A stretch of 64,000 nucleotides of DNA from assembly GCA_029561735.1 (NCBI GenBank), contig JAKQWZ010000064.1, positions 3,583-67,582 of the forward strand, written 5' to 3'. This stretch comes from Candidatus Omnitrophota bacterium (GTDB taxonomy: Bacteria; Omnitrophota; Gorgyraeia; Gygaellales; Profunditerraquicolaceae). The notes below the pieces were generated by a model, which was not told the DNA's origin, ran no database searches, and saw only the letters and a program-made list of their open reading frames with translations. Both the position numbers and the translations under genes were made by a program. This document shows positions 18,690 to 40,633 of the stretch, one piece after another (positions within the stretch are counted from its first letter, which is position 1; every line of letters begins with the position of its first letter).

Positions 18690-18695
18690 ATTTAT

Positions 18696-20569: not shown

Positions 20570-20601
20570 TGATTTTGGTTTTACTAAAAAGAGGGAATAA
20601 C

Positions 20602-25178: not shown

Positions 25179-26987
25179 TCACCACTGGAATTTAACTCCT
25201 GACTGCACCCATCTTCCCGGCTCAACTACTCCGCTAACCTCATAATATTTGGCATTCGTGAAATTGGTGATCTTTACAAACGGCTCAAATACCAATCCCT
25301 GCTTTGTGAACCTGCGCGCCAGATAGAAATCACCAAACAGGTATGTGTTTGCCAGATACCTTTGCTGATAATAAAACTGCAGTCCAAGGTCAAAACCACA
25401 GAGGCGCTGACTTAATCCGACATTCAGGCTATGCTTAAGCACATCCAGCGCGTATTTAGACTGGGCCTGCGTAGATTTATTGTCAGCGTCGGTATAGGTA
25501 TAGGAAAATTTTATATTTTCCAGGCTATAAGCTCCGGCTTTCAAAGAAGAACGGGCCTCCAGATTCAGGTCCACTCCCCTGAAATCCACCTTGCCCAGAT
25601 TTGTGGCCTGCCAGGGCTGAGAACTGCCCTGCCTAACCCAATCAATCAGGTCATGCCCCTGCCGTAGAAAAAATCCAGCTCCGAAGTTAAAAGATTTACT
25701 TTTAAATTGCGCGCCGGCTGCCAGATTATCGGATTTCTCAATACCAAGATTAGGATCCCCTTTGTTTGCCGCATCAGAATAGAATAATTCGGTAAAACTG
25801 GGCATACGAAACGCCCTGCCCAGCGATAAACTCAAACGCAGGGCATCATTTAACTCATAGCCTAAGCCGGCATTAAAAGATTTTTGCCATGGCCAACCAT
25901 GATAATGGTCTAGCCTGAATCTCAAATCCGAATCAAACCTGCCGAATCTTTTTGGCTGTATTCCAAAGAGGCCTGCTTCGTGCAACCGGGAATGCCTGCC
26001 CAGATTCGTGGAATTTATCTCATCCATCCCCGTATCCAACCCTAGCGAAAGGTCTCCTAGCCGGGTAGGGACAACTGCCGAAGAATTCCAGCCATAAAGA
26101 TAAGTAGTATGATAATTTACTGAGGTAGGATTGTTCTTATTTAATATAAATTTATCCCGGTGCTGGCGCAGGTACAGGTTATTCTTCAGCCTGTTTCCCC
26201 GAATCAGCGAATCCAGGCCAATTCTGGCGAACTCGGTCTGTGTATGTTCCTGCTCATCAGGAAAAAGATTGGAATAAAAAGTCGATGCCCCGAAATCCTT
26301 CTTTTGAAAACCGAAAAACAGATCAACCATCCCGTTCTCCAGATCGCGGGATAAATATACTGTGCCGGTCCTGTTATCAAAATCCGTATCCGGACGGGCT
26401 CCGGAGGATTTCTTATGGTCATAGGATATTCTTGCTCCCAGATCCCCTTCAACCCTGCTTATTGACAATACCTGTCCGTAAAGATCAAAGTCGCCGAAAA
26501 CCAAATCCGTATTAAACGAATTGCTGGCCGGTTTTTTGGTTATATAATTCACAGCTCCGGCCAATGCCCCGGCGCCATAGACAGAAGAAAATCCCTCTTT
26601 TTCCACCCGGATACTCTCAATATCATAGGCTGTAAGCGGGATATCCAGATTAAAGTGCCCGGTCTGAGGATCATTTACGTTTATAGAATCAATCGCCACT
26701 GCCACCTGCTCAAAAGTCGAGCCCTTAAGAGTAAGATCGGCCTGGACGCCAAAAGCCCCCCGCTGGCGAAGGTCTATTGCGCTGACAAAAGACAGAGGAT
26801 CGCTTATTGCCCCGGAGCTCTCATCCAATATCCGGCCTTCGGATAATATTTGCCCCGAATACGAAGACACGCCGGCCTGATTAGGGTACGAGCGCCTGAC
26901 CACAATGCGGTCAAAATCGCTTGTTTCTAATGCAAAACATACTGCCGGAAAAAAGAAGATGATGAATATTGCCGTATTCTTAAACAT
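25179..26987 (-). CDS. TonB-dependent outer-membrane receptor (BtuB-size)
   Basis: 602 aa. Signal peptide, a DRIVV TonB-box-like stretch, plug motifs (LKGSTFEQVAVAIDSINVNDPQTGHFNLD) and a C-terminal aromatic residue (KFQW). Confidence 0.8.
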   Translation of the reverse strand: MFKNTAIFIIFFFPAVCFALETSDFDRIVVRRSYPNQAGVSSYSGQILSEGRILDESSGAISDPLSFVSAIDLRQRGAFGVQADLTLKGSTFEQVAVAIDSINVNDPQTGHFNLDIPLTAYDIESIRVEKEGFSSVYGAGALAGAVNYITKKPASNSFNTDLVFGDFDLYGQVLSISRVEGDLGARISYDHKKSSGARPDTDFDNRTGTVYLSRDLENGMVDLFFGFQKKDFGASTFYSNLFPDEQEHTQTEFARIGLDSLIRGNRLKNNLYLRQHRDKFILNKNNPTSVNYHTTYLYGWNSSAVVPTRLGDLSLGLDTGMDEINSTNLGRHSRLHEAGLFGIQPKRFGRFDSDLRFRLDHYHGWPWQKSFNAGLGYELNDALRLSLSLGRAFRMPSFTELFYSDAANKGDPNLGIEKSDNLAAGAQFKSKSFNFGAGFFLRQGHDLIDWVRQGSSQPWQATNLGKVDFRGVDLNLEARSSLKAGAYSLENIKFSYTYTDADNKSTQAQSKYALDVLKHSLNVGLSQRLCGFDLGLQFYYQQRYLANTYLFGDFYLARRFTKQGLVFEPFVKITNFTNAKYYEVSGVVEPGRWVQSGVKFQW

Positions 26988-27023
26988 AAAAAACCCGGCA
27001 TCATTATAAAGGATACCGGGTTT
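26986..27023 (-). terminator. Hairpin plus U-tract immediately before the receptor start codon (birA terminator or attenuator)
   Basis: Minus strand AACCCGG-N17-CCGGGTT followed by TTTTTATG, where ATG is the receptor start codon. Confidence 0.5.
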
Positions 27024-27056
27024 ATTGTCAACCTGATATAAAATTATAGTTTACAA

Positions 27057-28040
27057 TTACCTGCAGTGGGCTACATCGCCGCTTAAGACCTTCTGGATCA
27101 GCCCTGAATCGCTTCTTAAAAGCAGGGCCCCGTCCGAATCTATACCTATGGCCTCACCTTCCAGTACGCGGTGGTGAGAATTCACCTTAACCCGCTTTCC
27201 CAAAGTTATGTTTGCGGCACGCCATTTATCCAAGATCACCGTCGAGCCGTACTTTTCCAGATACAGATAATTTTCTTCGATAGCTAAAAGTATCTTTTTC
27301 AGGAGCCCTGCGCGGTTGACTTCATCTTTTAATTGTTCCTTCAGTGAAGTGGCACCGGCTAATAACGATCTCTTGTCGTTATTTATGTTCAGCCCGAAAC
27401 CGACCACCGCAAAATGCGTCCGGTCTGTCTCAGCGTTCAGCTCCGTAAGTATTCCCCCGAGTTTTTTATTGTGGATCAGGATGTCATTGGGCCATTTGAT
27501 CCTGGCTTCTAAACCGGTTGCTTCTTTGATCGCTTCGCAGATACTTACAGCACACAAAAGCGTCAGTAAAGGCGTGGCATTAGGGGCCAGTTCCGGGCGC
27601 AGTACCAAAGACAGATATATTCCTTTATATTTAGGGGAAAACCATTCTCTGCCCAGCCTGCCCTTGCCTTTTGTCTGGGATTCAGCTACCACCAGGGTAC
27701 CGTTAGGGCAGCCTTTGACCCCCAATTCAGCCGCTACATCCATAGTTGTAGGTAAGGCATCATAATAATATATTTTTTTTGCGATAAATTTGGTATGCAG
27801 GCGATAAGCCAATTCTGCGGGAAACAACCGGTCAGGTGCGGATTTTAAGCAATAGCCCAAATGCGGCACTGCTTCAATATCATATCCGCAATCTTTAAGT
27901 ACCTGAATATGTTTCCACAGCGCCTGGCGGCTGACATTAAGATGCCCGCTCATCTCTTCGCCGGAAACATATTCATCTTTTTTTCTTAAATATTCCAGAA
28001 CCTTATCCTGCATGTCGGCTTTTTTTAAGATACTCTTCAA
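27057..28040 (-). CDS. birA: Bifunctional biotin-protein ligase / biotin operon repressor
   Basis: 327 aa. N-terminal wHTH, KGKGRLGREW (GRGRxGRxW-type) and a C-terminal SH3-like tail. Confidence 0.9.
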   Translation of the reverse strand: MKSILKKADMQDKVLEYLRKKDEYVSGEEMSGHLNVSRQALWKHIQVLKDCGYDIEAVPHLGYCLKSAPDRLFPAELAYRLHTKFIAKKIYYYDALPTTMDVAAELGVKGCPNGTLVVAESQTKGKGRLGREWFSPKYKGIYLSLVLRPELAPNATPLLTLLCAVSICEAIKEATGLEARIKWPNDILIHNKKLGGILTELNAETDRTHFAVVGFGLNINNDKRSLLAGATSLKEQLKDEVNRAGLLKKILLAIEENYLYLEKYGSTVILDKWRAANITLGKRVKVNSHHRVLEGEAIGIDSDGALLLRSDSGLIQKVLSGDVAHCR

Positions 28041-29073
28041 ATTTTATCCAAAACGGATCCACTTTTGGATGTTCAAGCTTATAATGCCTGCCTTTTTCAA
28101 ATACGGTTATCCCTTTGCTCTTAGGGATAACTTTACCGCAGATGCTCGCCTCTATGCCTGAACGCTTTAACGCGCGGACAACCTTTGCGGCTTTGCTTTT
28201 CTTTGCAGTAGCCAGCAAAGTCCCCTCGCTGATCGCCCTGAATGGATCAATATCAAAACACTCGCAGGTCAATCTGACTTCTTGCGGCATAATAATATCA
28301 TCCAGCCGGATATCCATACCTACGCGCGCCTGCGCTGCCATCTCAAACAAGCCGCCAAGGACGCCGCACTCAGTGGCATCATGCATAGCGGTTACTCCGC
28401 CGCAAGCCGCTGCTGTCAAGGCATCTTTTACCGTAGACATCTTATAAAAAATAGCCTGTGCCTGTTTAACAAATTTACTTCCGTACCTGGCTGCGAGGAA
28501 TTGAGGAAAATAGGCTGACATAAGCCCGGTAGTCTCTATTGCCGGGCCTTTCGAAACTATAATAGCATCTCCCGGCTGCGGCTTAGGGATAATAAGCTTG
28601 TCCTTCTTATCTATGCCGAATACCGTAGCCCCGCCGACCATCGGATAGTTGCATCCGGCATACCTGGCAGTATGCCCCGTGACAACATTAATGCCGAGCT
28701 TTTTGCATTCTTTGTGCACAGCGCCCCAGAGCCTGGCTAATTCCTCTTCACTGATCTGGGGCGGCAAATTTAAATCTACGCTTAGGTAGCGCGGTTTTAT
28801 ACCGCTCACAGCTACGTCGCTGGCCAGTATATGCACGGCAAACCAGGCAGCTTTTTCAATACCCAACTCTTTAGCAATAAAAAACGGGTCCGTAGATAAT
28901 ACCATTACTTTATTGCCCAGACTGATAACTCCGAAATCAACTCCGTGGCAGGGCTTGACGATCACCGATGCATCGGCAGCGCCTAGCTTATGAAAGATAT
29001 GTTTATTGAAAAATTCCGGATGAATCTTGCCTAGCTCCGGCAGATTCTGGCAATGACGCTTATTTTTCTTCAT
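28003..29073 (-). CDS. AIR-synthase-related (PurM/HypE/SelD superfamily) protein
   Basis: 356 aa. The N-terminal DASV...GVDFGVI...STDP pattern and two-domain length fit the PurM-like ATP-binding fold. The specific function is unknown. Confidence 0.65.
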   Translation of the reverse strand: MKKNKRHCQNLPELGKIHPEFFNKHIFHKLGAADASVIVKPCHGVDFGVISLGNKVMVLSTDPFFIAKELGIEKAAWFAVHILASDVAVSGIKPRYLSVDLNLPPQISEEELARLWGAVHKECKKLGINVVTGHTARYAGCNYPMVGGATVFGIDKKDKLIIPKPQPGDAIIVSKGPAIETTGLMSAYFPQFLAARYGSKFVKQAQAIFYKMSTVKDALTAAACGGVTAMHDATECGVLGGLFEMAAQARVGMDIRLDDIIMPQEVRLTCECFDIDPFRAISEGTLLATAKKSKAAKVVRALKRSGIEASICGKVIPKSKGITVFEKGRHYKLEHPKVDPFWIKFEEYLKKSRHAG

Positions 29074-30223
29074 AAAGAGGAGACATAGAGCGCAGCTTTT
29101 TGACTACTGCGGGTAGGTTTTCCAGGAGGCAATCAATATCTTCTTCTTTAGTCCACCTGCCCATGGTTATACGCAAAGACCCGTGGGCTAATTCATGCGG
29201 CAGGCCGATTGCCAGTAAAACATGCGACGGCTCAAGAGAGGTTGAAGTGCATGCCGAACCGGTTGAAGCGGCAATACCGAGCATATCCAGATTCAATAAT
29301 ATAGATTCGCCTTCTATATATTTAAAAGAAAAATTGACATTATTCGGCAGGCGTTTTACCGGATGGCCGTTAAGCCGGCTTTCAGGAATACTCGCCGGAA
29401 TCTGCTTGATCAACCTATCCCTGAGCTTAGACTGAAAATCCGCTTCCTGGCCCATTGCAACAGAACATAATTCCAGGGCCTTCGCCATCCCGACTATACC
29501 GGGGGTATTATGAGTTGAGGCGCGCCTTCCTTTTTCCTGATCACCGCCCAATAGATATGGGTGCGTACGCGTGCCTTTTCTTATATATAATGCGCCCACA
29601 CCCTTGGGCCCGTAAAATTTATGGGCAGATAAAGAAAGCAGGTCTATATTGGCCTTATTAACGTTTACCGGAATATGCCCCACTGTCTGGACTGCATCAA
29701 CATGAAAATAAACGCCTTTTTCTTTTGTGAGCCTGCCGATTTCTTCTATAGGCTGTATTGTCCCGATCTCATTATTAGCATGCATTATCGAAACCAGGAT
29801 CGTTTTATCGGTAATAGATTTCTTTACATCCTGCGGGTCGACTAATCCGTCTTTATCCACGCCCAGATAAGTTACTTTAAAACCTTTCTTTTCTAAAAAT
29901 TTAGCCGGCTCTAAAACCGCATGATGCTCTATAGCGGAAGTTATAATATGATTGCCTTTTCCCGCCAGAGTAAAAGCCGTCTCAATAACAGCGGTATTAT
30001 CTGCTTCTGTCCCGCCGGAATTAAAAACTATTTCGTCAGGGCTGGCCCCTAATACGCGCGCAGTAATTTCGCGGCTGTCCTCAATGGCTTTTTTAGCTTC
30101 CTGGCCGAAATAATGGATGCTAGAAGGATTGCCGAATTTTTCAAAAAAATACGGCTCCATTGACTTTAGCACTTCAGGGTCAGCCGGAGCAGTTGCCGCA
30201 TAATCAAGGTATATTCTTTTCAT
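29060..30223 (-). CDS. Cysteine desulfurase (NifS/IscS family)
   Basis: 387 aa. SAHKFYGPKG carries the PLP-binding Lys, and STGSACTS the catalytic Cys loop. Confidence 0.9.
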   Translation of the reverse strand: MKRIYLDYAATAPADPEVLKSMEPYFFEKFGNPSSIHYFGQEAKKAIEDSREITARVLGASPDEIVFNSGGTEADNTAVIETAFTLAGKGNHIITSAIEHHAVLEPAKFLEKKGFKVTYLGVDKDGLVDPQDVKKSITDKTILVSIMHANNEIGTIQPIEEIGRLTKEKGVYFHVDAVQTVGHIPVNVNKANIDLLSLSAHKFYGPKGVGALYIRKGTRTHPYLLGGDQEKGRRASTHNTPGIVGMAKALELCSVAMGQEADFQSKLRDRLIKQIPASIPESRLNGHPVKRLPNNVNFSFKYIEGESILLNLDMLGIAASTGSACTSTSLEPSHVLLAIGLPHELAHGSLRITMGRWTKEEDIDCLLENLPAVVKKLRSMSPLYEEK

Positions 30224-31014
30224 AGGCCTAAAGGTTCGTTCATGCTACCACTGCGAAATCCTTCCAAATCCACTGTCACATAATTATAACCTAACTTTTT
30301 AAAGTTGTCGACAACCTCTTTATTTTTGGACAGCAAAAATTTAATATCCGCAGGCATAACTTCAATCCGGCACAAGCCGTTATAATGCCTGACCCTGACA
30401 GGATCAAACCCGAGCATTTTAAGAAAACGTTCTGCTTTGTTTATGCACGACAGGGCCTTTGTGCTTATCGGGCTGCCGTAAGGTATTCTTGAAGCCAGGC
30501 ATGCCAGGCTTGGCTTATTCCAGGTTTGAAGGCCCAATCTTTTACTCATGAACCGGACATCCTCTTTAGTAAAACCTGCTTCGCTAAGCGGAGACCGTAT
30601 CCCCAGCTCTTTTTTTGCTTTATCTCCGGGACGAAAATCTTTTTTATCGCTTATATTTCCGGCGTCAATCACAAAATCAATCCCTCTAAGTGCGGCAATA
30701 TTTTTTAGCCTTGTGAATAATTCCTTTTTACAATGGTAACAACGCTCAACCGGGTTATTGCGGAATTTGCGGTTATTCAGTTCTTCGGTCTTTATTACCG
30801 TATGCCGGGCCCCTAATCTACGCGCCAGAAGCCTGGCAGATTTAAGCTCTTCCTTAGGGTAAGTTTCGGAAACCGCAGTAACTGCCAGGACTTTGTCAGT
30901 AAGAGAATCCAATGCCACCTTGAGCAGAAATGAACTATCCGCGCCCCCTGAATAAGCCAAAAGCACTGAATTCATCCTCTTGAGTATAGCTTTAAGTTTT
31001 TTCAACTTGCGCAT
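30220..31014 (-). CDS. LarE-like PP-loop ATP pyrophosphatase (TIGR00268-type sulfur transferase)
   Basis: 264 aa. PP-loop LAYSGGADSS, CYHC and ACLASRIPYG give three conserved Cys. Confidence 0.75.
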   Translation of the reverse strand: MRKLKKLKAILKRMNSVLLAYSGGADSSFLLKVALDSLTDKVLAVTAVSETYPKEELKSARLLARRLGARHTVIKTEELNNRKFRNNPVERCYHCKKELFTRLKNIAALRGIDFVIDAGNISDKKDFRPGDKAKKELGIRSPLSEAGFTKEDVRFMSKRLGLQTWNKPSLACLASRIPYGSPISTKALSCINKAERFLKMLGFDPVRVRHYNGLCRIEVMPADIKFLLSKNKEVVDNFKKLGYNYVTVDLEGFRSGSMNEPLGL

Positions 31015-31019
31015 TGGCT

Positions 31020-31427
31020 TTAAAAATGCACTTCCATTGCTTGGGTAGGGCAGATCTTAATGCAGAGTTCGCAGGCAATGCATTTCTTATCATGAAATGC
31101 TATCTTGCGCGTTTTAGGGTCTACCTCTAAAGCCCCGACAGGGCATATCGGAACGCATACTCCGCAATCAGTACATTTTTTTTCATTGCGCCTTATATCA
31201 TGGCTTAAAGATTCAACTTTTAAACCGCATGATTTAAGGTATTTTACCCCCTTATCATAATCTTCAGCCTTACCAGCCAGTTCAATGACCATCAACCCTT
31301 CCTCTTCCGGGGTTATAGAGGCCTTAAGGATATTAAACTTCAGGTCATGCTCTTTTATCAGATTATAGACTATCGGCTCATCAACCAGCCGCTTAGGGAA
31401 ATGCAGGACGATCCTTTTTGAAATCAT
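31020..31427 (-). CDS. NIL domain + 2x[4Fe-4S] ferredoxin protein
   Basis: 135 aa. An N-terminal NIL-like beta-alpha domain is followed by CTDCGVCVPICP and CIACELCIKICP. Confidence 0.8.
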   Translation of the reverse strand: MISKRIVLHFPKRLVDEPIVYNLIKEHDLKFNILKASITPEEEGLMVIELAGKAEDYDKGVKYLKSCGLKVESLSHDIRRNEKKCTDCGVCVPICPVGALEVDPKTRKIAFHDKKCIACELCIKICPTQAMEVHF

Positions 31428-31441
31428 TTTTGTTTATCTCC

Positions 31442-32653
31442 TTACTTTAAGCGGGCTATCGGCCTTTCTTTTAAAGGCTTAAAACTATAGCCTGATTCTG
31501 CTCCTGGAAGCTGCGCTACCGGTTCAGTCAGCAGAAAATCACCTTTTTTAATCCATGACTTCAACTCTTCGGAAATCTCGCGGGCCTTGGAATAGCTAGA
31601 AAGGCTCCCCGTAGGGACTTCCTTGCCCTGGACAGTAATCTTTCCGGATTTTAACTGCGCATAGCTGGCCTCTCCCAGGCTTTTAGCGACCATCTGTGGA
31701 TAATCCTGGCTGTAATCAACAATCTGCGCAAATATTTCTTCATCTTTTATTGCTGCGCTTTTTAGGATCTCCTCATCTAATATAGGAATAGGGACCCCTA
31801 TACCCACGCCAAGGCTGACGCCATAACCAAGCATGCTGATGCCCTTTAGCCACTTATCGCTCATAGTTTTTAAATCGCCGATCACCGCCAATGTTCCTGC
31901 GGGTACTTGAGGTACTCCGTTATCTTTTCTTTTTACGCAAGGATTATGCTGAGTGCCTTGCCAGCTGACATAACCCACGCCTCCCCCCAAGAATATTTTT
32001 GTACCTATACCGATTGTCTTATAATACGGGTCTTTTAAAAGAGGGGAAAGCTGCCCTGCAGAGCAGTAATTTGCATTGCCCAATTGTGGTTTTAGCGACC
32101 CCATATAGGTATAAATAGTCTTGTCGGATAAATTGACTGCAATGTTGTAATTCTGATAACAGTTGCGGAAATTGAAAAGTACTGCTTCATTCAAGTCTTT
32201 TAAATTTATGTAGGTCTCCAGCTTTTTGCGCGGATAACAATCGGTTCCATAAGCGCTTGCTTCCAGCCGGACATCTTTTCCAGCTACCAATTCCTGTATG
32301 ACGTGCCCTCCGCCGTATTTGAATTCACCGGGAAAAACTTTATTGCGGGGGTCATCATCCGGGATAGCAGTCGCCCCCAGGTAGACATCAACCGCAGCAA
32401 ATCCCGGATAAACCGGTACATCATTCAAGGTACAGGTGCCGCCGCCTATTTTTATCCTGGGCTTAGAATGGCCGATATTAAAATAAGCCCCGGAAGAACA
32501 CATCGGGCCGAAAGTCCCGGTTGTGACCACGTCAACTTCCTGGGCTGCTTTTTTTATGCCCTTTTTCTGTACCAGCTCAATTACTTCCTCGGCAGTTATC
32601 GCAACTACCTGGCCTTTTTTTATCTTTTCATTGATCTCTTTAATCGTTCTCAT
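31442..32653 (-). CDS. COG1900/DUF39-type homocysteine biosynthesis protein
   Basis: 403 aa. The N-terminus KEINEKIKKGQVVAITAEEV...VDVVTTGTFGPMCSSGA is typical of the family that pairs with NIL-ferredoxin (recognised from memory). Confidence 0.7.
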   Translation of the reverse strand: MRTIKEINEKIKKGQVVAITAEEVIELVQKKGIKKAAQEVDVVTTGTFGPMCSSGAYFNIGHSKPRIKIGGGTCTLNDVPVYPGFAAVDVYLGATAIPDDDPRNKVFPGEFKYGGGHVIQELVAGKDVRLEASAYGTDCYPRKKLETYINLKDLNEAVLFNFRNCYQNYNIAVNLSDKTIYTYMGSLKPQLGNANYCSAGQLSPLLKDPYYKTIGIGTKIFLGGGVGYVSWQGTQHNPCVKRKDNGVPQVPAGTLAVIGDLKTMSDKWLKGISMLGYGVSLGVGIGVPIPILDEEILKSAAIKDEEIFAQIVDYSQDYPQMVAKSLGEASYAQLKSGKITVQGKEVPTGSLSSYSKAREISEELKSWIKKGDFLLTEPVAQLPGAESGYSFKPLKERPIARLK

Positions 32654-32671
32654 TAGTATCCCTATCCCCCT

Positions 32672-32893
32672 TTATAACGCTACTACCTCTTTTATTTCCG
32701 GTATCTCTTTCTTAAGCAGTTTCTCTATGCCGTTTTTAAGCGTCATCTGGCTCATCGGACAAGAGCCGCATGCCCCGGTAAGTTTAACTTTAACAATTCC
32801 GTCTGCGGTAACTTCTACTAACTGCACATCCCCTCCGTCTGCCTGAAGCATTGGTCTGATTTTGCTTAATGCCTGTTCTACTTTCTCTTTCAT
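32672..32893 (-). CDS. NifU C-terminal-domain-like Fe-S scaffold/carrier protein
   Basis: 73 aa. GGDVQLVEV...GACGSCPMS is the Nfu/NifU C-terminal domain motif. Confidence 0.85.
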
Positions 32894-32902
32894 ATTAGTC
32901 TC

Positions 32903-33826
32903 CTATAGGTTAAATAACTCTGTGCTTAAATATCTTTCGCCTGTATCCGGCAATATTACTACAATGAGCTTGCCTTTATATTCTTTGCGCCTGGCAATTT
33001 CCATCGCCGCAAAAACTGCTGCACCCGAAGAGATCCCGGCTAATATACCTTCCTGTTTTGCCAGCTTTCCGGCAATCAAACCGGCATCTTCATTAGAAAC
33101 CTGTATAATCTCATCAATAATTTTAACATTTAATACATCCGGAATAAAACCTGCGCCGATCCCCTGGATCTTATGCGCACCCGGCTTGCCTCCGGATAAC
33201 ACCGGGGAATCTTTTGGTTCCACCGCAATTGCCTTAACCGAAGGTTTCTTTTTCTTCAATACCTCTGCGATTCCGGTAAGCGTGCCTCCAGTACCCACGC
33301 CGGCGATAACCGCATCAACCTTTCCGTCGGTATCATTCCAAATCTCAAGGGCGGTAGTCTTACGGTGCACCTGCGGATTTGACGGATTCTTAAACTGCTG
33401 CGGCATATAAAAATTTGCGTTCTTTCTAGCTATATCTTCGGCTTTTTTTACAGCTCCGGACATGCCTTCTGCTCCGGCAGTTAGAATAATCTCGGCTCCG
33501 AGTAAGGATAAAAGCCTACGCCTTTCTATGCTCATTGTCTCAGGCATAGTTAGAATTAATTTATAGCCTTTTACTGCCGCGACAAAAGCCAGGGCAATAC
33601 CGGTATTGCCGCTTGTCGGCTCGACAATCACCGTGCCTTTTTTAAGCAAGCCTTCTTTTTCCGCCTGCTCAATCATACTTAGCCCAATCCTGTCTTTGAC
33701 CGAAGAGCAGGGATTAAACGATTCGAGCTTCAGAACTATTTGCGCAACGCAACCTTCGGATAAACGGTTAAGCCGCACCAGCGGGGTATTACCTATAAGT
33801 TCAGTTATGTTTTTTGCAATTTTCAT
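32903..33826 (-). CDS. cysK: Cysteine synthase A (O-acetylserine sulfhydrylase)
   Basis: 307 aa. [10 protein letters not shown] carries the PLP-binding Lys. TSGNTG and [10 protein letters not shown] are also present. Confidence 0.9.
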
Positions 33827-33835
33827 AGTGATTCA

Positions 33836-34276
33836 TTATATTTGATATACGTATGCCGCGTCAAATTTTTTGCTTTTTTTGGCCAATTCTTCAAAAGTAA
33901 CATTATCCAAGACGTGGGAAATCGCTTTGCCTACCTTAAGCCAGACTTCTCTTAAAACGCATTTTTTAATATCCCTGCAGCCTTTATAGCCGTCCTGCAC
34001 GCACTCAATCGGATCCAGAGGCCCTTCTATGAACCTGACCACATCGCCTACTGTTATCTTTGAAGGATGTTTTGCCAGTAAATAACCGCCTACTTTACCG
34101 CGCCTGCTTTCAACAAAACCGCCGCGCTTTAAATTTAAGAGTATCTGTTCTAGAAACTTTATCGGGATATCGGATCTCTTTGCCAGATCAGGAATAGTAA
34201 CCGGGCTGTTTCCGTAATGAACAGACAGGTTCAGTATTGCTTTGACTGCGTAATCGCCCTTAAAGGTGAGTTTCAT
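33836..34276 (-). CDS. Rrf2-family transcriptional regulator
   Basis: 146 aa. N-terminal wHTH (YAVKAILNLS...) with scattered Cys (C92, C100, C106-like) that could bind a cluster. Confidence 0.85.
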   Translation of the reverse strand: MKLTFKGDYAVKAILNLSVHYGNSPVTIPDLAKRSDIPIKFLEQILLNLKRGGFVESRRGKVGGYLLAKHPSKITVGDVVRFIEGPLDPIECVQDGYKGCRDIKKCVLREVWLKVGKAISHVLDNVTFEELAKKSKKFDAAYVYQI

Positions 34277-34308
34277 GGTTTTCTAGATAATGTCTATCGT
34301 TTTGGTAG

Positions 34309-34336
34309 AGTATACATGATAATCATCCATTGTCAA
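34309..34336 (-). promoter_or_regulatory. Sigma-70-type promoter with embedded palindrome (candidate Rrf2 operator)
   Basis: Minus strand TTGACA-16 nt-TATACT. The spacer contains ATGAT-N1-ATCAT (34316-34326). Confidence 0.6.
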
Positions 34337-34347
34337 GAAAAATCTTC

Positions 34348-35256
34348 TTAAAATTTATGGCTTATCAGATACCGGAATGCGGACAACAAAGCCTTGGATC
34401 CCTCTCCTGCGGCAATAATTATCTGTTTTTCCGGGACATCAGTCACGTCTCCGGCGGAAAATATTCCCTCTACGCTGGTATTATTACGCGCATCAACCAT
34501 TATCTCGCCTGCTTCATTGCGTTTTACCAGAGAGGCAAAATCCGAATTCGGAATTAACCCTATTTCTACAAAAATCCCCGATACGGCAAGCGTCATTGGC
34601 TTTCCCTGAAAATCTATTTCTATGGCTTTAACAAATTTATCTCCATTAATGCGTTTTACAGCCGAGCTGTTAAAGACGGTGGCGTTCGGGGATTCTTTTA
34701 GAGTATCAATCATTACCGGATCGCCGGTCAACTCAGGCGAAATATTAATGATATTTACCCGGGAACAGATCTTAACCAGTTGCAATGCCGCATCCAAAGC
34801 AGAATTACCGCCGCCGATAACAGCTACATCCTTGCCCTGGAATAAAGGCCCATCGCATGTAGCGCAATACGTAAGGCCGAGGTTTTTATATTCTTTTTCT
34901 CCCGGGATATTTAATTCCCGCGACCTTTTACCTGAAGCAATTATCAGGGCCTTAGCCTGATACTGTGCTTGGCCGGTCTTTACCTTTATAATATTGCCGG
35001 ATTTAGACAGCTCTGTTACGGCTTCGTTCTCTTTTAAATTAATCTCGAATTTCCGCAGGTGTTCTTCAAACTTGGCGACCAATTCCGGCCCGGAAACAAA
35101 CTGATAACCGGTATAATTCTCTATATCGCCGCTCCAGGCAGTCTGGCCCCCTATATCCCGGCTGATCAGGATAAAATTCATTTTTTTGCGCGCGGCATAT
35201 ATAGCAGCGGTGATGCCGGCGGGGCCGGCGCCTATAATTATCAAATCGTAGATCAT
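34348..35256 (-). CDS. trxB: Thioredoxin-disulfide reductase
   Basis: 302 aa. GAGPAGITAAIYA, redox-active CATCDG and a second GGGNSA dinucleotide motif. Confidence 0.9.
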   Translation of the reverse strand: MIYDLIIIGAGPAGITAAIYAARKKMNFILISRDIGGQTAWSGDIENYTGYQFVSGPELVAKFEEHLRKFEINLKENEAVTELSKSGNIIKVKTGQAQYQAKALIIASGKRSRELNIPGEKEYKNLGLTYCATCDGPLFQGKDVAVIGGGNSALDAALQLVKICSRVNIINISPELTGDPVMIDTLKESPNATVFNSSAVKRINGDKFVKAIEIDFQGKPMTLAVSGIFVEIGLIPNSDFASLVKRNEAGEIMVDARNNTSVEGIFSAGDVTDVPEKQIIIAAGEGSKALLSAFRYLISHKF

Positions 35257-35489
35257 AACCCCAATGCTTTGGTGATTTTTTCCCGGTCAAAACCCACAAT
35301 AATCTCGCCTTCTATATCAAGTACAGGAACCCCCATCTGGCCGGACTTTTTGACCATCTCATCCGCAGCCTGCTGATCAGAAGAAACATCTATATCTTTA
35401 TAGGCTATTTTATTATCTCTTAAAAACTGCTTAACCCTGATGCAATAAGGGCACGTGGTAGTACTATAAACAGTAATCTGTTTTGGCAT
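35253..35489 (-). CDS. Glutaredoxin-like protein (NrdH/Grx family)
   Basis: 78 aa. TCPYC active site and GVPVL motif. It overlaps trxB by 4 nt. Confidence 0.85.
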   Translation of the reverse strand: MPKQITVYSTTTCPYCIRVKQFLRDNKIAYKDIDVSSDQQAADEMVKKSGQMGVPVLDIEGEIIVGFDREKITKALGL

Positions 35490-35503
35490 AAATCCCTCCC
35501 CTG

Positions 35504-35983
35504 TTATTTAAGTTTATCTTTCAGGCCTAAGAGCATCATCAGGTGTTCCTGTTCCCGGGCAATTAAATCGTTAATTATTTTCAAGTCTGACTCCGGGATC
35601 ATCTTCTTCATGCCGTCATAAAAAATTATTGAATCTTTTTCAAACTTTATGCCCAGGTCAACCGCATCAGCTTCATTTTTTGCGGATTTTGCGATTTCCT
35701 CGCCTTTATCTTTCTGGGTAAATATATATTCCGCGGCCAGGGATTTCATATATGCCGCATAATCATCGGCATAAACAGGGGCAGGCTCATATTTTTGAAC
35801 AGAATCCAGTATTTGCTGAAAAATAGCTATATGCTTCTGCTCTTCCGAAGCCAGAAATAGAAAAATTTCTTTGGCCTTGGCGTCTTGAGAAACAGCCGCA
35901 ACAGCATCGTAGAAATCCTTGCCGTTTTTTTCAATCTGGATACCTAATTCCACTATTTCGCTGCCAATAAAAATATTGCCCAT
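35504..35983 (-). CDS. Ferritin-like diiron protein (erythrin/rubrerythrin-family four-helix bundle without a rubredoxin domain)
   Basis: 159 aa with ExxH motifs (SEEQKH, REQEH) in two helix pairs. Confidence 0.7.
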   Translation of the reverse strand: MGNIFIGSEIVELGIQIEKNGKDFYDAVAAVSQDAKAKEIFLFLASEEQKHIAIFQQILDSVQKYEPAPVYADDYAAYMKSLAAEYIFTQKDKGEEIAKSAKNEADAVDLGIKFEKDSIIFYDGMKKMIPESDLKIINDLIAREQEHLMMLLGLKDKLK

Positions 35984-35993
35984 ATAAGGGTCC

Positions 35994-36455
35994 TCACTTT
36001 AAATGGTGCGGGGTCAGGTCAACTATGTGTTCAACATCCATAGCTATCAGGTATTTAGGCTTAGGCAATGCCGCCTCCGGATGCCTGGGATGGCCTTTTT
36101 CCTGCCGCAAATTTTTTAAGACACGCTGGGTTATGCGCCCGGATATACGCTCTTCCCATGCAGCATTAATCTCTTTATCCAGATCCTGCACAGCCACAAC
36201 TTTTGCCCTGCCTTTCAGGCAATAGCCTTTAAACCTGTGTTCATCAACTGCGGTAATTGAGATATTATCATTATTCTGCAGGTTTTTGAAAGTGTGCTCC
36301 TTATAAACATCAAGTAAGTAAATCTTGCCTTCCTGGGTTATCTTTACGATGCCCTTGCAGGAACAATGCAGGCTGCCTGCCGGATCGCAGGTTATCACTA
36401 TAACAAACCCCTGCTTTTGAAAAAAATCAGCAACGTCATCAGACAACTTTAACAT
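35994..36455 (-). CDS. Pyridoxamine 5'-phosphate oxidase-like FMN-binding split-barrel protein
   Basis: 153 aa. The pattern of beta-barrel segments fits the PNPOx-like family. The call is moderate. Confidence 0.55.
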   Translation of the reverse strand: MLKLSDDVADFFQKQGFVIVITCDPAGSLHCSCKGIVKITQEGKIYLLDVYKEHTFKNLQNNDNISITAVDEHRFKGYCLKGRAKVVAVQDLDKEINAAWEERISGRITQRVLKNLRQEKGHPRHPEAALPKPKYLIAMDVEHIVDLTPHHLK

Positions 36456-36457
36456 AT

Positions 36458-36616
36458 TCAGACCTTCTCAAACATATCCTTGGTAACTCCGCACTCGGGG
36501 CATACCCAGCTATCCGGTAAAGATGCAAAAGAAGTGCCGGGCTGAATACCCTGCGAAGGATCCCCCACTGCCGGATCATAAATATACCCGCAAACAGTAC
36601 AACGGTATTTATCCAT
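36458..36616 (-). CDS. Rubredoxin (unannotated in the ORF track)
   Basis: Hand translation gives [52 protein letters not shown]. Canonical CxxCG...CPxCG motifs are present. The SD AAGGAGG lies 6 nt upstream. Confidence 0.9.
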
Positions 36617-36694
36617 TTTGTCCCTCCTTAACAAACTGCGCCTCGCACCAATTGGAATAAAGCAATTGAATCTCCAGCCAATGCGAGGGTAAAC

Positions 36695-36742
36695 TTATTT
36701 TTTCTTTTTTTTCTTTTTTGCCCCGCACTTTCCGCAACTCAT
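36695..36742 (-). CDS. Candidate 15-codon mini-ORF MSCGKCGAKKKKKKK (speculative)
   Basis: The ATG is preceded by AGAGGGGG. The ORF encodes a CxxC motif followed by seven Lys codons forming a 21 nt A-rich run. The same run reads as a T-tract after a hairpin on the plus strand, which is an alternative explanation. Confidence 0.2.
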   Translation of the reverse strand: MSCGKCGAKKKKKKK

Positions 36743-36763
36743 AATCATACCCCCTCTTTTGCC

Positions 36764-37159
36764 CTACTCCAGCTCCAGATTCCTGGAGCTTTGCCAGATA
36801 CCATGAATATTACAATAAGAAGAAGCTAAAATAACCCCAGGTTTATCTGTTTTTAAATTTATTACAGCTTCAGATTGTGTAAACACAGTACTGGTATTAG
36901 GGCCCTGGACTGATTCTCCGTGAGCATTAAACTCAATTCTTGCTAGCTGATAAGGAAATTTTTCCCCTTCCGGAAGGAAATAGGCTTCAATCCAGCGTAT
37001 ATGATGTTCGGTGGTATTGGGATGCGGGATTTGCCTGCCGACACAAAGCTTAATTTCTATTGGCTCTGATTTTTTTGCTTTCTGGGGAGCGTCTATTACC
37101 GGAACATGTTTTTCTTTAGCCCAGTCTGCGCTCTGAAACAAATCCTTTAGCTCTGCCAT
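36764..37159 (-). CDS. Superoxide reductase, 1Fe-SOR (neelaredoxin class)
   Basis: ATG at 37159 follows the SD AAGGAGGG. EKHVPVI, HPNTTEHHIRW and CNIHGIW supply the 4 His + Cys ligands of the catalytic iron centre. There is no N-terminal desulforedoxin domain. Confidence 0.85.
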   Translation of the reverse strand: MAELKDLFQSADWAKEKHVPVIDAPQKAKKSEPIEIKLCVGRQIPHPNTTEHHIRWIEAYFLPEGEKFPYQLARIEFNAHGESVQGPNTSTVFTQSEAVINLKTDKPGVILASSYCNIHGIWQSSRNLELE

Positions 37160-37175
37160 ATAACCCTCCTTGCAT

Positions 37176-37217
37176 AAAAAGCGCACACCGGCGCAACATT
37201 CTTTAAGCGCCGGGTGT
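37176..37217 (-). terminator. Intrinsic terminator/attenuator between the flavodiiron and SOR genes
   Basis: Minus strand ACACCCGGCGC-N13-GCGCCGGTGTG followed by CGCTTTTTAT. It begins at the FDP stop codon. Confidence 0.6.
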
Positions 37218-38410
37218 TATTTGATTTTTGAAGCAAATGCCTTACCGAAATCAAAACACCTGTTCAGGTCAGCCGGATCAGGCGCATAAACCAGGCCTAA
37301 CGATTCCTGGGCTATTTCAAGGCCGGCTTCCTTAAGCACTCCCTCAATTTCTTTGGCTGCTCCGCCAGCCCATCCAAAAGATCCGAATACCGCAGTGACC
37401 CTGTTTTTTGGTTTCAAGCCCTTAAGAAATTCTAGGAAACCGGCAATACCGGGTAGCATATCGTTGTCATGGGTAGAAGAACCGAAAATAAACCCCTTAG
37501 CTTCCAGCATCTCTTTAATTATCTCACTCCGGTCTGAAATTGCCACATCAAAAAGTTTTACTTCTATCCCTGATTCAAGCAGGCCATCAACGATCTTTTT
37601 GGCCATTTTTTCGGTTGAACCCCACATAGTTTCATAAACTATAACAACTTTGGGCTTGACTGTATTTTTTGCCCAGGAAATATAGGCATTAATAATTTTC
37701 AAGGGGTCTTTACGCCAGATTATTCCGTGGCTGGGAGCGATCATCTTAACCGGAATGTTCATTTTTTGTATTTCTTCTATCTTTTTCAGGATTACAGTTC
37801 CCAGCGGCCAGAGGATATTGCCGTAATATTTTTGCGCCTCATCCATAAGCTCACACTCGCTTACTTCATCGTCAAACCTCTGGCTGGTTGCATAATGCTG
37901 CCCAAAGGCGTCATTAGGCAAAAGCAATTCTTCCTGCGGGCAATAAGTAAACATGCTATCCGGCCAGTGGATCATCGGGGCTTCAATAAATTTAAGCGTA
38001 CGCCTGCCAAGTTTTAATTCATCACCGGTTTTAATAATCTGGAAATCCCAATCCCCGTAATAATAACGAAAAAGACCTTCTTTGCATTTTTGCGTACAGT
38101 ATATTTTAGCTTTAGGACAAAGCATCATAATTTCCGGTAGGGCCTGAGTATGATCAGGCTCAACATGATTAACTACAATATAATCTATTTTTTCAGGCGG
38201 CACTACTGACTTGATCTTCTCAATAAAATCCCGGGAAAAAGCCCCTAGCACAGCATCAATCAACACGGTCTTTTCATCTTTAATCAAATAAGAATTATAT
38301 GTAGAGCCCCTGTTAGTGGAATAGGTGTGCCCGTGGAACGTCCTAAGGTTCCAGTCAACTGCCCCTACCCAAAATATATCTTTTTTTATCTCAACAGCAT
38401 TCATGATCAA
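37217..38410 (-). CDS. Flavodiiron protein (class A, rubredoxin:oxygen/NO oxidoreductase type)
   Basis: 397 aa. A metallo-beta-lactamase-like domain with HVEPDH is followed by a C-terminal flavodoxin domain (VVIVYETMWGSTEKMA). Confidence 0.9.
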   Translation of the reverse strand: MIMNAVEIKKDIFWVGAVDWNLRTFHGHTYSTNRGSTYNSYLIKDEKTVLIDAVLGAFSRDFIEKIKSVVPPEKIDYIVVNHVEPDHTQALPEIMMLCPKAKIYCTQKCKEGLFRYYYGDWDFQIIKTGDELKLGRRTLKFIEAPMIHWPDSMFTYCPQEELLLPNDAFGQHYATSQRFDDEVSECELMDEAQKYYGNILWPLGTVILKKIEEIQKMNIPVKMIAPSHGIIWRKDPLKIINAYISWAKNTVKPKVVIVYETMWGSTEKMAKKIVDGLLESGIEVKLFDVAISDRSEIIKEMLEAKGFIFGSSTHDNDMLPGIAGFLEFLKGLKPKNRVTAVFGSFGWAGGAAKEIEGVLKEAGLEIAQESLGLVYAPDPADLNRCFDFGKAFASKIK

Positions 38411-38422
38411 CCTGCCCCTCCC

Positions 38423-39133
38423 CTAATACCCGATAAAGCTTTCGGTTTTGATCTGTTCTTTTGCTGCGCCGATAGACTGCGTCAGCTCTTTCATCGCTTC
38501 AACCATTTTCGGCGGGCCGAAAATAAAGAACTCCCAACCCTCCACCCGGGGGAATTTTTCCGCCAGCAAATCTTTGCTCAACCTGCCAAAGATACAAGCC
38601 TTATCCACAGGCTGACAATCAGTCACTATATAATATACTTTTAGATTGGGATTTTCGCAACGCCAATTATTCAGTTCCTGCTTAAAAGCGATCTCTTCCT
38701 CGGTGCGGTTGGAATAAACAAGCGTAATATTAGTGCCGAGCTCTTTCTGGGCCACATATTCAAGGATAGAGATTATCGGAGTTATGCCGATCCCTCCGAT
38801 GATAAAACCTATGTTCTTATAATCAGCGCAAAAGACGCACGTGCCAAGCGCGGCTTCGAAGAAAATATCATCTCCGGGTTTTAAACTACAAAGCCTTTGG
38901 CAGAAGGGGCTCTGGCTAATCCTTTTGGTCACTTCAATATAATCGTTGAGAGGAGAAGAAGAAAATGAAAGGTATTTATTCAGCTCTTTATTCTGCGGGC
39001 TGGCCGGGTCAAATATAAGCCTTAAAAACTGCCCCGGGGTAAAATCAACCTTCTCCTGCGGTAAAAAGCGAAAGCTTTTTACCGTAGGGGTGCGGTCAAT
39101 AACCTGCATTAATTTGGCTTTATACAGCTTCAA
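38423..39133 (-). CDS. FNR-like FAD/NAD(P)-binding oxidoreductase
   Basis: 236 aa. TTG start after the SD GGGAGGGGG. Motifs are YLSFSSSP (RxYS-like) and FIIGGIGITP. Confidence 0.75.
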   Translation of the reverse strand: MKLYKAKLMQVIDRTPTVKSFRFLPQEKVDFTPGQFLRLIFDPASPQNKELNKYLSFSSSPLNDYIEVTKRISQSPFCQRLCSLKPGDDIFFEAALGTCVFCADYKNIGFIIGGIGITPIISILEYVAQKELGTNITLVYSNRTEEEIAFKQELNNWRCENPNLKVYYIVTDCQPVDKACIFGRLSKDLLAEKFPRVEGWEFFIFGPPKMVEAMKELTQSIGAAKEQIKTESFIGY

Positions 39134-39227
39134 GCAACCCCCTCCCTGAATAGCTGAATGACAAGTTATTATAAACTGATTATTGGATTTAGTAAAGTGT
39201 CAAAATTACCCTAAAATCGGCCTTTTT

Positions 39228-40520
39228 CTACCTGCCTTGAAGCATATCCTGCATATCTTGTTTTGCCGTATTGATAAGTTTCAAGCCGAATTTATCCTGA
39301 ACAACTTTAAACACATTCGGGGTTAAGAATGCCGGAGCCGAAGGCCCCAGGCGCATATTCTTAACATCCAGGGATAGCAAAGTCAATAGTATAGCCACTG
39401 CCTTTTGTTCAAACCAGGATAACACTATTGATAGCGGTAGCTCGTTTACCGAACAATTAAAGGCTTTGGCCAAAGCCAATGCAACCTGTATGGCTGAATA
39501 GGCGTTATTGCACTGGCCGATATCAATCAAACGCGGAATGCCCTCGATATTACCAAAATCAATTTTGTTAAAACGGTATTTACCGCAAGCCAGAGTCAAT
39601 ATAACGCAATCTTTAGGAACAGCCTCAGCCAGTTCCGTGTAATAATTGCGGCCGGGTTTTGCTCCATCACAACCTCCGATCAAAAAGAACCGTTTTATTT
39701 TGCCGCCCTTTACCGCAGCAATAATCTTATCTGCTAATCCCAGGATAGCGGTGTGATGAAAACCGGTCATAATCTTCTTTCCCGGAGTTTCGGGTAAAGC
39801 AGGCAAAGATTTTGCTTTTTCAATCAAATCCTTAAAATCCCTTCCCTTAATATGACTGGCGCCTTCAACCGAAGAAATCCCGATAGTGAATATCCTGTCC
39901 AAATAAGTTCCGGGCGGCGGGATCATTACGCAGTTGCTAGTAACTAAGATCGCTCCCTTGAATTCGTTGAATTCTTTCTTTTGCTCCTGCCAGGCTCCTC
40001 CGTAATTTCCAACAAGATGTCTAAATTTCTTTAATTCTGGATAACCATGGGCAGGAAGCATTTCACCGTGCGTATAAACATTAATACCGGTACCTTCTGT
40101 CTGCTTAAGCAACTCATAAAGATCCAGCAGGTCATGACCTGTGACCAATATGCCGGGGCCAATTCTAGTACCGGTATCCACTTCGGTCGGGACAGGATTA
40201 CCGAATCTCTGGGTATGCGCCTTATCCAGCAATTCCATGACTTTAAGATTTACCTGGCCGCATTTCAACGCCAAATTAATATAATCATTAAGGTCAAAAC
40301 TGACGTTGGTTAGCGTCTTAAATAACGCCTCATGCATAAAGGCATCTACAACCTCATCTTTGGCGCCAAGCTCTCTGGCATGATACGCATATGCGGCAAT
40401 ACCTTTTGCTCCGAATAGAATAAGGTCCTGCAAACTCTGGATATCCGGGCTCTTACCGCATACCCCGGATTTAGTGCAACCCGTGCCGCCTGCTGTCTGC
40501 TCGCATTGATAACAAAACAT
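39228..40520 (-). CDS. hcp: Hybrid cluster protein / hydroxylamine reductase, short (class III-like) form
   Basis: ATG at 40520 follows AAGGAGG. The N-terminus MFCYQCEQTAGGTGCTKSGVCGK carries the Cys motif. The protein is about 430 aa. Confidence 0.85.
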   Translation of the reverse strand: MFCYQCEQTAGGTGCTKSGVCGKSPDIQSLQDLILFGAKGIAAYAYHARELGAKDEVVDAFMHEALFKTLTNVSFDLNDYINLALKCGQVNLKVMELLDKAHTQRFGNPVPTEVDTGTRIGPGILVTGHDLLDLYELLKQTEGTGINVYTHGEMLPAHGYPELKKFRHLVGNYGGAWQEQKKEFNEFKGAILVTSNCVMIPPPGTYLDRIFTIGISSVEGASHIKGRDFKDLIEKAKSLPALPETPGKKIMTGFHHTAILGLADKIIAAVKGGKIKRFFLIGGCDGAKPGRNYYTELAEAVPKDCVILTLACGKYRFNKIDFGNIEGIPRLIDIGQCNNAYSAIQVALALAKAFNCSVNELPLSIVLSWFEQKAVAILLTLLSLDVKNMRLGPSAPAFLTPNVFKVVQDKFGLKLINTAKQDMQDMLQGR

Positions 40521-40633
40521 AATTTTCCTCCTTGGGCAGAAAGCCCACGCCAAACTATCAGCCCAGCATGGGCGCACTTGGCAATCCTTTATGCCAAGAT
40601 GCCTTTAAGTTTGGGCGCTAGTTATTCCACCTT

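Follow-up and report, generated by a model that had tools for sequence, protein, structure and literature searches.

The 64,000-nucleotide stretch analyzed here (the window), from contig JAKQWZ010000064.1 of a Candidatus Omnitrophota bacterium, carries nine adjacent minus-strand genes, running from position 34276 down to 27057, that place cysteine and homocysteine synthesis beside sulfur mobilization. Read in the direction of transcription, they encode an Rrf2-family regulator, cysteine synthase A (CysK), the NifU-type protein Nfu, the two subunits of L-ASST (L-aspartate-semialdehyde sulfurtransferase; here HcyBio and the NIL-ferredoxin), a LarE PP-loop protein, the cysteine desulfurase NifS, a member of the PurM superfamily (PurM-like) and BirA (Table 1). 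The features described below lead us to favor, with moderate confidence, a co-regulated reduced-sulfur operon over a dedicated sulfur relay. Literature searches returned no description of this operon.

Searches with hidden Markov models (HMMs) bore out every family assignment made in the initial annotation of this DNA, including that of the 403-residue protein to PF01837. That annotation had also placed nine co-oriented genes within 28003-34336. Nine genes do share the minus strand, but only eight fall within this interval, the ninth being birA. The genes are closely packed, as had been claimed, with spacing of -38 to +18 bp and three overlaps; the start of birA overlaps the stop of the PurM-like gene, and nifS overlaps the stop of larE. 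Tight spacing and a shared strand are nonetheless weak evidence for an operon, because both are the background of the window: 66 of its 68 gene calls lie on the minus strand, with a median gap of 14 bp. Such a one-directional layout over 64 kb is unusually extreme, and GC skew is below zero across the whole window (-0.03 to -0.18). The unit is better delimited by its two flanking gaps than by co-orientation or spacing: 71 bp precede Rrf2 and 69 bp follow BirA, and no other gap in this stretch exceeds 60 bp.

A tblastn search of the window gave no match to IscU (the U-type scaffold partner of NifS), COG2122, Thi4, FdhD, cystathionine gamma-synthase or ThiN, and the window likewise lacked any Cys_Met_Meta_PP homologue. 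The identical contig is present in three metagenome assemblies, and for one of its proteins the nearest named homologues come from Omnitrophota MAGs.

Table 1. Genes and control elements of the nine-gene unit, in the direction of transcription
Feature	Position	Strand	Detail
Sigma-70-type promoter, TTGACA-16-TATACT	34309-34336	minus	11/12 consensus positions; within 71-bp gap before Rrf2
Candidate Rrf2 operator, 32 nt	34284-34315	minus	Overlaps -10 box and transcript start; phylum consensus GTATACTCTACTAAnATnATAGAGATTATAGA, imperfect palindrome
Rrf2-family regulator, 146 aa	33836-34276	minus	PF02082, 134 bits; superfamily model passed, 126 bits vs 73
Cysteine synthase A (CysK)	32903-33826	minus	TIGR01139, 484 bits, cut-off 351
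Nfu (NifU C-terminal domain), 73 aa	32672-32893	minus	PF01106, 107 bits
HcyBio/DUF39/COG1900 subunit of L-ASST, 403 aa	31442-32653	minus	PF01837, 516 bits
NIL + 2x[4Fe-4S] ferredoxin subunit of L-ASST	31020-31427	minus	PF09383 and Fer4 families
[4Fe-4S]-type LarE PP-loop sulfur insertase	30220-31014	minus	TIGR00268, 324 bits, cut-off 150
NifS/IscS-class cysteine desulfurase	29060-30223	minus	TIGR03402, 578 bits, cut-off 531
PurM-superfamily protein, 356 aa	28003-29073	minus	AIRS and AIRS_C domains; no family-specific model passed
BirA, bifunctional biotin ligase/repressor	27057-28040	minus	TIGR00121, 212 bits, and HTH_11; last gene of unit
Perfect promoter, TTGACA-17-TATAAT	27003-27031	minus	In 69-bp gap between BirA and TonB-dependent receptor gene; downstream unit boundary

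Promoter and candidate operator upstream of Rrf2

A promoter scan of 26500-37000 returned 24 promoter-like sites against 19.9 expected. The two best consensus promoters in the scanned region are those in the two flanking gaps. Given this site count, the match upstream of Rrf2 is weak taken alone, but sequences preceding the Rrf2 orthologue were also compared across 23 additional species. Both promoter boxes (-35 and -10) and ~25 bases beyond them proved to be conserved in more than 20 species of Omnitrophota, upholding the promoter proposed in the initial annotation. The consensus across species reads CTTGACA, 17 bases, TATACT and then CTACTAAnATnATAGAGATTATAGAG, which forms an imperfect palindrome.

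A weight matrix built on the 32 nucleotides found 34 sites in ~2 Mb of fetched sequence, all of them at Rrf2 promoters and several on both strands. The window has one copy, as does each cluster; further copies within a cluster or elsewhere were sought and none was found. Riboswitch or T-box control was likewise rejected, an Rfam search having found nothing between 27 and 35 kb.

Cys92, Cys100 and Cys106 of the Rrf2 protein are invariant in 63 of 63 sequences, and because of these three residues the regulator is predicted to be of the Fe-S-binding kind. It failed the equivalog models for both IscR (112 bits; cut-off 207.55) and CymR (107 bits; cut-off 195). Given that the operator is conserved, is confined to Rrf2 promoters in the ~2 Mb scanned and occurs in single copy, autoregulation by Rrf2 from a single promoter is plausible, and with it the Rrf2 control that had been suggested for these genes.

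Proteins encoded by the unit

The HcyBio protein matches PF01837 over residues 17-375 and contains no CBS domain. Its score of 115 bits against TIGR03287 (MMP16), where the cut-off is 364, ruled out the MMP16/ComF subtype. Cys52, Cys139 and Cys197 are invariant in 86 of 86 sequences. The gene for the NIL-ferredoxin follows after 14 bp, and all eight cluster cysteines of this subunit are invariant in 46 of 46 sequences. MA1821 of Methanosarcina acetivorans has two conserved cysteines, the essential Cys54 and Cys131 (PMC12068725); Cys52 and Cys139 lie near these two in residue number.

The description of COG1900 and the NIL-ferredoxin as a methanogen-type system holds insofar as the pair is the same, but the pathway has been genetically proven beyond methanogens, in Desulfovibrio, where DUF39 is required in D. 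alaskensis (PMC5764234, PMC4045070). A full-length PF01837 protein and an adjacent NIL-2x[4Fe-4S] partner are common to the window, to M. acetivorans (MA1821/MA1822) and to D. vulgaris and D. alaskensis (DUF39 with NIL/ferredoxin). The window differs from these known systems in that HcyBio lacks a CBS domain and no COG2122 gene is nearby. Moreover, the three pathway genes of Desulfovibrio have widely separated locus tags (PMC5764234), whereas in the window the genes for Nfu, LarE and NifS accompany the pair in a predicted operon headed by Rrf2 and CysK.

How the COG1900 homocysteine pathway works at the enzyme level, and what donates its sulfur, are not yet settled (PMC12068725). COG2122 has been proposed as a sulfur-trafficking partner of the COG1900 protein (PMC5764234, PMC12068725), and a passage in PMC5764234 that cites Rauch 2017 reports an in vivo persulfide on a conserved cysteine of MA1821. 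The initial annotation had regarded a persulfide or activated-sulfur relay feeding this pathway as undescribed. A persulfide relay in general is already described and so is not new; for a version that uses NifS and LarE, no description was found in the literature searched.

Cys325, the active-site cysteine of NifS within the motif GSACTS, is retained in 70 of 70 sequences. Homologues with 63-80% identity are followed by IscU/NifU in loci L012 and L062 (surveyed loci are cited by L number) and in many Chloroflexota loci; in L042, an IscU gene lies earlier in the same cluster as nifS. Genes for MnmA, NadA, FdhD and MOSC proteins surround these homologues. Because it is paired with IscU elsewhere and has client genes nearby, NifS looks like a housekeeping cysteine desulfurase of general function, with several clients. 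In Nfu, Cys42 and Cys45 of the CxxC motif are invariant, and the protein is likely to be a [4Fe-4S] carrier. Its gene, joined in L042 by that of IscU, sits in other species between those of HcyBio and the NIL-ferredoxin. An apparent Nfu-NIL-ferredoxin fusion in L016 was rejected: the long open reading frame (ORF) is an artefact of start-codon choice, and Nfu has a gene of its own, read in a different frame and located between those of HcyBio and the NIL-ferredoxin.

Comparison of the LarE protein with L. plantarum LarE gave E = 8e-56. The PP-loop motif SGGADS occupies residues 22-27, and Cys92, Cys95 and Cys172, the ligands of a CxxC-C cluster, are invariant in 31 of 31 sequences. The third cysteine is displaced by one residue relative to L. 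plantarum Cys176; the same displacement and the same cysteine positions are found in T. maritima LarE (PMC9283937). Alignment to 5udq placed a serine (LASR) and an Arg-x-Arg motif (VRVRH) at the positions of Ser180, Arg212 and Arg214, which in L. plantarum numbering bind the phosphate of P2CMN (PMC9283937). The protein therefore resembles the T. maritima enzyme in its SGGxDS PP-loop, in its CxxC-C at 92/95/172 and in its phosphate-binding serine and arginines, and it looks like a true nickel-pincer-cofactor LarE. The [4Fe-4S]-LarE of T. maritima works catalytically with a cysteine desulfurase and cysteine as the sulfur source (PMC9283937), and a LarE of this type would explain the pairing of larE with nifS without recourse to homocysteine. 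The two systems differ in that the desulfurase genes of T. maritima are distant from larE, whereas here the two genes overlap, and no LarB, LarC or LarA was seen in the window.

The PurM-like protein scored below the cut-offs of the models for HypE (TIGR02124; 98 bits vs 251.6), ThiL (TIGR01379; 62 vs 184) and SelD (TIGR00476; 54 vs 125), and membership of the ThiL family was rejected on this score. With all three it shares the two-domain AIRS/AIRS_C fold and motifs, present here as a DX4GxxP-like motif, GHT and HDAT(E/x)G. By contrast, the C-terminal cysteine of HypE, the carrier of its cyanide precursor, is missing, the sequence ending in KKSRHAG with no conserved cysteine, and the Cys/Sec-x-x-Lys loop of SelD is missing from an N terminus that has a conserved G-K but no conserved cysteine; both identities were rejected. 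The protein has four conserved cysteines specific to its clade (Cys123, Cys141, Cys236 and Cys270), two of them within active-site motifs. An AlphaFold2 (AF2) model (predicted local distance difference test score, pLDDT, 87.5) was about equally close to HypE, ThiL, SelD and PurM in a fold search, with TM-scores of 0.6-0.79 to HypE, ThiL and SelD and a target-normalised value of 0.79 for A. aeolicus ThiL. The family is compact and highly conserved, comprising 353 clusters at 50% identity (E <= 1e-30).

In three long family members (P0241, P0250 and P0277), PurM-like and the thiamine-phosphate synthase ThiN are joined in one protein, with either domain first, and locus L165 (996-2647) reads NifS-ThiN-PurM-like. 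Thiamine-monophosphate kinase catalyzes the step after ThiN and is a known activity of the PurM superfamily. Because of the ThiN fusions, the ThiN adjacency and the occurrence of Thi4 in the same operon in many Omnitrophota, our leading guess is that the PurM-like protein may be a ThiL-like thiamine-monophosphate kinase, an analogy that rests on the fusions and the fold match and not on an HMM. Given the ThiN fusions, a thiamine-related role is more plausible for this protein than the sulfur activation implied in the initial annotation. In another Omnitrophota genome (L004, 8393-10386; L005), the PurM-like gene is flanked by the biotin transporter gene bioY and a gene for an acylphosphatase, and sulfur genes are absent from the vicinity. 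A biotin link, to which the overlap with birA and the BioY neighbor in L004 and L005 had pointed, was dropped; it is not seen in the Chloroflexota clade described below.

Gene neighborhoods in other genomes

A scan of species-representative genomes yielded 80 HcyBio loci, mostly from Omnitrophota and with HcyBio identities of 72-86%, in which ORFs were labeled by BLAST with the window proteins and extra queries. Twenty-five Omnitrophota-type loci with sufficient flank (block-type loci) were scored for neighbors within 6 kb of HcyBio. The usual order among them is Rrf2-CysK-Nfu-HcyBio-NIL-ferredoxin-LarE-NifS-BirA-TonB receptor-MnmA-NadA. LarE was present in 17 of the 25 and NifS in 18, compared with 2/25 for PurM-like; COG2122 (UPF0280) gave no tblastn match in any. 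Several species retain the block without LarE (L037, L043, L046, L048, L049) or without NifS (L013, L021, L032, L038, L044, L051, L064), whereas L006 and L007, of one lineage, have Nfu-LarE-NifS-PurM-like-BirA without Rrf2, CysK, HcyBio or the NIL-ferredoxin. The conserved synteny also includes unrelated genes, namely oxidative-stress genes upstream and those for BirA and the TonB-dependent receptor downstream.

Beyond this lineage, what recurs is Rrf2-CysK-HcyBio-NIL-ferredoxin, a core that occurs alone in contigs labeled Atribacterota, Spirochaetota and delta proteobacterium. COG2122 stands beside the core in five loci: L056, L075 and L087 have it directly after the NIL-ferredoxin, and in L073 and L147 it is found downstream of HcyBio at a distance of a few hundred bp; L056 is from Omnitrophota, and the labels among the other four are Chloroflexota or Dehalococcoidia. 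NifS, LarE or PurM-like genes are again found near HcyBio, in other gene orders, in L054, L062, L065, L076, L077 and L079. In 14 of 45 loci none of the three is nearby. The link between the homocysteine pair and LarE/NifS proposed in the initial annotation is thus conserved in many Omnitrophota and recurs elsewhere, yet it is not obligate. That the association reappears with other gene orders, and with Nfu and IscU interleaved, makes it more than inheritance.

The cluster also takes in other genes whose products use sulfide. One, for the sulfide-dependent thiazole synthase Thi4 (TIGR00292), adjoins CysK or HcyBio in 19 of the 80 loci (e.g. L012, L023, L042, L063 and L087); CysE is another. Locus L079 (6919-13084), on a contig labeled uncultured delta proteobacterium, reads YqeB-XdhC-HcyBio-NifS-PurM-like-MOSC, where YqeB is a selenium-dependent molybdenum cofactor maturation protein; this order hints at some connection with sulfuration or selenation of the molybdenum cofactor.

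A second PurM-like clade, ~50% identical and from sources named Chloroflexota or Dehalococcoidia, was sampled in 80 metagenome loci. Of the 51 loci that could be scored, 24 have the PurM-like gene immediately after NifS or NifS-IscU; the PurM-like gene is in turn often followed by a CoA-binding protein, MOSC, FdhD, NadA or MnmA. Upstream lie Rrf2-CysK-CysE, cystathionine gamma-synthase and an enzyme of the ThrC family accompanied by a free-standing NIL protein, whereas COG1900 is present upstream in only 3/25 loci. The loci of this set (L090-L169; for example L102, 322-9865) have in common an extended sulfur cluster that reads Rrf2-CysK-(CysE)-cystathionine gamma-synthase-ThrC-family pyridoxal phosphate (PLP) enzyme-NIL (80 aa)-NifS-NifU-PurM-like-CoA-binding protein-MOSC-(FdhD)-NadA. 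The ThrC-like and NIL pair could be a threonine synthase or a MetM-type homocysteine synthase. Since NifS-PurM-like adjoins sulfur amino-acid genes whichever homocysteine route is used, shared regulation is favored over a mechanism specific to L-ASST.

In the window itself, an oxidative-stress cluster (34348-41246, minus strand) lies immediately upstream of the unit. It encodes a thioredoxin-reductase-like protein, glutaredoxin, rubrerythrin, a PNPOx-like protein, rubredoxin, desulfoferrodoxin, a flavodiiron protein, an NAD-binding reductase and hybrid-cluster protein, and a large part of it is syntenic across Omnitrophota. At its head is a second Rrf2 regulator (40824-41246), 31% identical to the first. 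At 49279-51296 (minus strand), a radical SAM gene is overlapped by one whose ThiI-like PP-loop product carries an NFACT-R_2 domain for RNA binding, with a Zip transporter and CbiQ/ABC genes as neighbors; a homologous ThiI-like gene comes directly after NifS in L054. More distant minus-strand features are a c-di-GMP-I riboswitch at 9167-9258 (RF01051; 82 bits vs gathering score 35), which lies just upstream of a gene (7859-9079) for a family 1 glycoside hydrolase; a group-4-like membrane-bound [NiFe] hydrogenase/Mrp-antiporter-type cluster at about 9900-20600, with the Pfam families NiFeSe_Hases/Complex1_49kDa, Complex1_30kDa, Oxidored_q6, NADHdh and Proton_antipo_M and with ferredoxin-like and NAD-binding subunits close by; and genes for tRNA-Thr(CGT) and tRNA-Phe(GAA) at 2803-2875 and 3150-3221.

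Co-regulation, sulfur relay or inherited gene order

We favor the view that the nine genes form an autoregulated, co-regulated operon for reduced-sulfur metabolism, in which separable modules share one promoter and operator. The first module, Rrf2-CysK-Nfu-HcyBio-NIL-ferredoxin, would make the two sulfur amino acids: CysK would convert sulfide to cysteine, the L-ASST pair would form homocysteine from aspartate semialdehyde and reduced sulfur, and Nfu would probably hand [4Fe-4S] clusters to the ferredoxin subunit. The second, LarE-NifS-PurM-like, is centred on NifS, which as a general desulfurase would provide persulfide sulfur for Fe-S assembly and for its clients. One such client would be the [4Fe-4S]-dependent LarE, thiolating the precursor of the nickel-pincer cofactor; the PurM-like protein would possibly phosphorylate thiamine monophosphate, and BirA would be a passenger. 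The Fe-S-binding Rrf2 protein would repress the single promoter through the conserved operator, such that genes for cysteine, homocysteine, sulfur mobilization and sulfur-dependent cofactors would respond jointly to Fe-S or cysteine status.

An arrangement of this kind has parallels. Bacillus subtilis has a cymR-yrvO-mnmA operon, in which yrvO is nifS-like, together with a CymR-CysK regulatory pair, and clostridia have iscR-iscS-iscU clusters. Here, too, an Rrf2 regulator heads an operon with a cysteine desulfurase, CysK is tied to the regulator, and MnmA and NadA are encoded just downstream. The present regulator differs in having a three-cysteine Fe-S motif while failing both the CymR and the IscR models; the operon adds the COG1900 pathway, LarE and PurM-like, and IscU is absent from the window.

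An alternative that we consider unlikely is a dedicated relay, in which cysteine made by CysK would pass its sulfur through NifS to the COG1900 enzyme in persulfide, cluster-bound or ATP-activated form. Nfu/IscU, the LarE-like and/or the PurM-like protein would act as carriers and would replace COG2122. The frequency with which LarE and NifS accompany HcyBio in the block-type loci, and their return in six loci of other gene order, speak for such a relay. So do the three invariant cysteines of HcyBio, the persulfide reported for MA1821 in the passage cited above, the interleaving of IscU and Nfu with the two L-ASST genes in L042, and the distribution of COG2122, which is absent from the window and the block-type loci but stands beside HcyBio where LarE and NifS are absent (L056, L075, L087 and L073). 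However, LarE-NifS-PurM-like persists without L-ASST in L006 and L007, LarE or NifS is singly missing from the block in several species, and L-ASST occurs without all three genes both in the 14 loci noted above and in the genetically studied Desulfovibrio (PMC5764234). The NifS-PurM-like module is tied equally to methionine genes other than COG1900, LarE retains its P2CMN-binding residues, PurM-like is fused to ThiN, and the conserved synteny extends over BirA, the TonB-dependent receptor and the oxidative-stress genes. We give the same low probability to the more specific proposal that the COG1900 homocysteine synthase of Omnitrophota is fed not with free sulfide but with cysteine sulfur, which NifS would turn into a persulfide and which Nfu/IscU or the [4Fe-4S] LarE-like protein would carry to the three-cysteine site of HcyBio. 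Such a route would stand in for COG2122 and would amount to a cystathionine-independent transsulfuration from cysteine to homocysteine.

Somewhat less probable again is an inherited synteny without shared function or regulation, in which the genes after the NIL-ferredoxin would be expressed from promoters of their own. The strand bias and short gaps of the entire window would accord with this, as would the retention in many species of a block that starts at the oxidative-stress genes, takes in BirA and the TonB-dependent receptor and reaches MnmA and NadA, and the promoter-like sites within the unit. By contrast, cysteine and homocysteine genes have been rejoined with NifS modules in other orders in lineages labeled Aerophobetes, Chloroflexota and delta proteobacterium, which argues for selection and not descent alone. 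The unit is further set apart by internal gaps of 18 bp or less and three overlaps, against flanking gaps that hold the two best promoters, and by a single conserved operator per cluster.

We think it least likely that the LarE-like protein thiolates another substrate and the PurM-like protein is an ATP-dependent NifS/IscU partner (in Fe-S/molybdenum-cofactor sulfuration or a selenium or thiophosphate step), neither being tied to homocysteine: the lack of LarB and LarC in the window, the sub-threshold HypE, ThiL and SelD scores, the four conserved cysteines and the placement of PurM-like after NifS or IscU and before MOSC or FdhD, as in the Chloroflexota-type loci and L079, would suit it, but LarE scores above its equivalog cut-off and still has the residues that bind its substrate, ThiN fusions and adjacency point to thiamine, and many PurM-like loci have no NifS nearby, such as BioY-PurM-like in L004.

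Several points weigh against the co-regulated operon that we prefer. Most of the surveyed loci come from one phylum, so their counts are not independent events. Promoter-like sites occur inside the unit at 33864-33835 and 30311-30283, and we infer the co-transcription of its nine genes from sequence. Where LarE-NifS stands here, other lineages have COG2122; this placement, the absence of COG2122 from the block-type loci and the window, and the interleaving of IscU and Nfu would also be compatible with a direct link in function. For LarE, the nickel-pincer role stays a predicted one, because neither AIRC (LarB) nor LarC appears in the Pfam lists covering ~2-60 kb of the window; a motif-based scan of 2 Mb for LarB and LarC also gave no match, which is not evidence of absence. 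Finally, a ThiL-like role does not account for the four invariant cysteines of PurM-like, and two of its three ThiN-fused relatives are without Cys141 and Cys236.

The arrangement is new, whereas its parts are of known kinds. If the link between the modules is only regulatory, the operon would be a useful metabolic annotation for Omnitrophota and not a new mechanism. It names NifS, Nfu, IscU and the [4Fe-4S] LarE as candidates to test with bacterial L-ASST. It also flags a cysteine-rich clade of the PurM superfamily whose context points to NifS/IscU and thiamine synthesis, and which could represent a new ATP-dependent factor associated with NifS/IscU or else a thiamine-phosphate kinase of a new type. 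The candidate Rrf2 operator, as defined here, offers a handle on the control of reduced-sulfur metabolism in an uncultured phylum.

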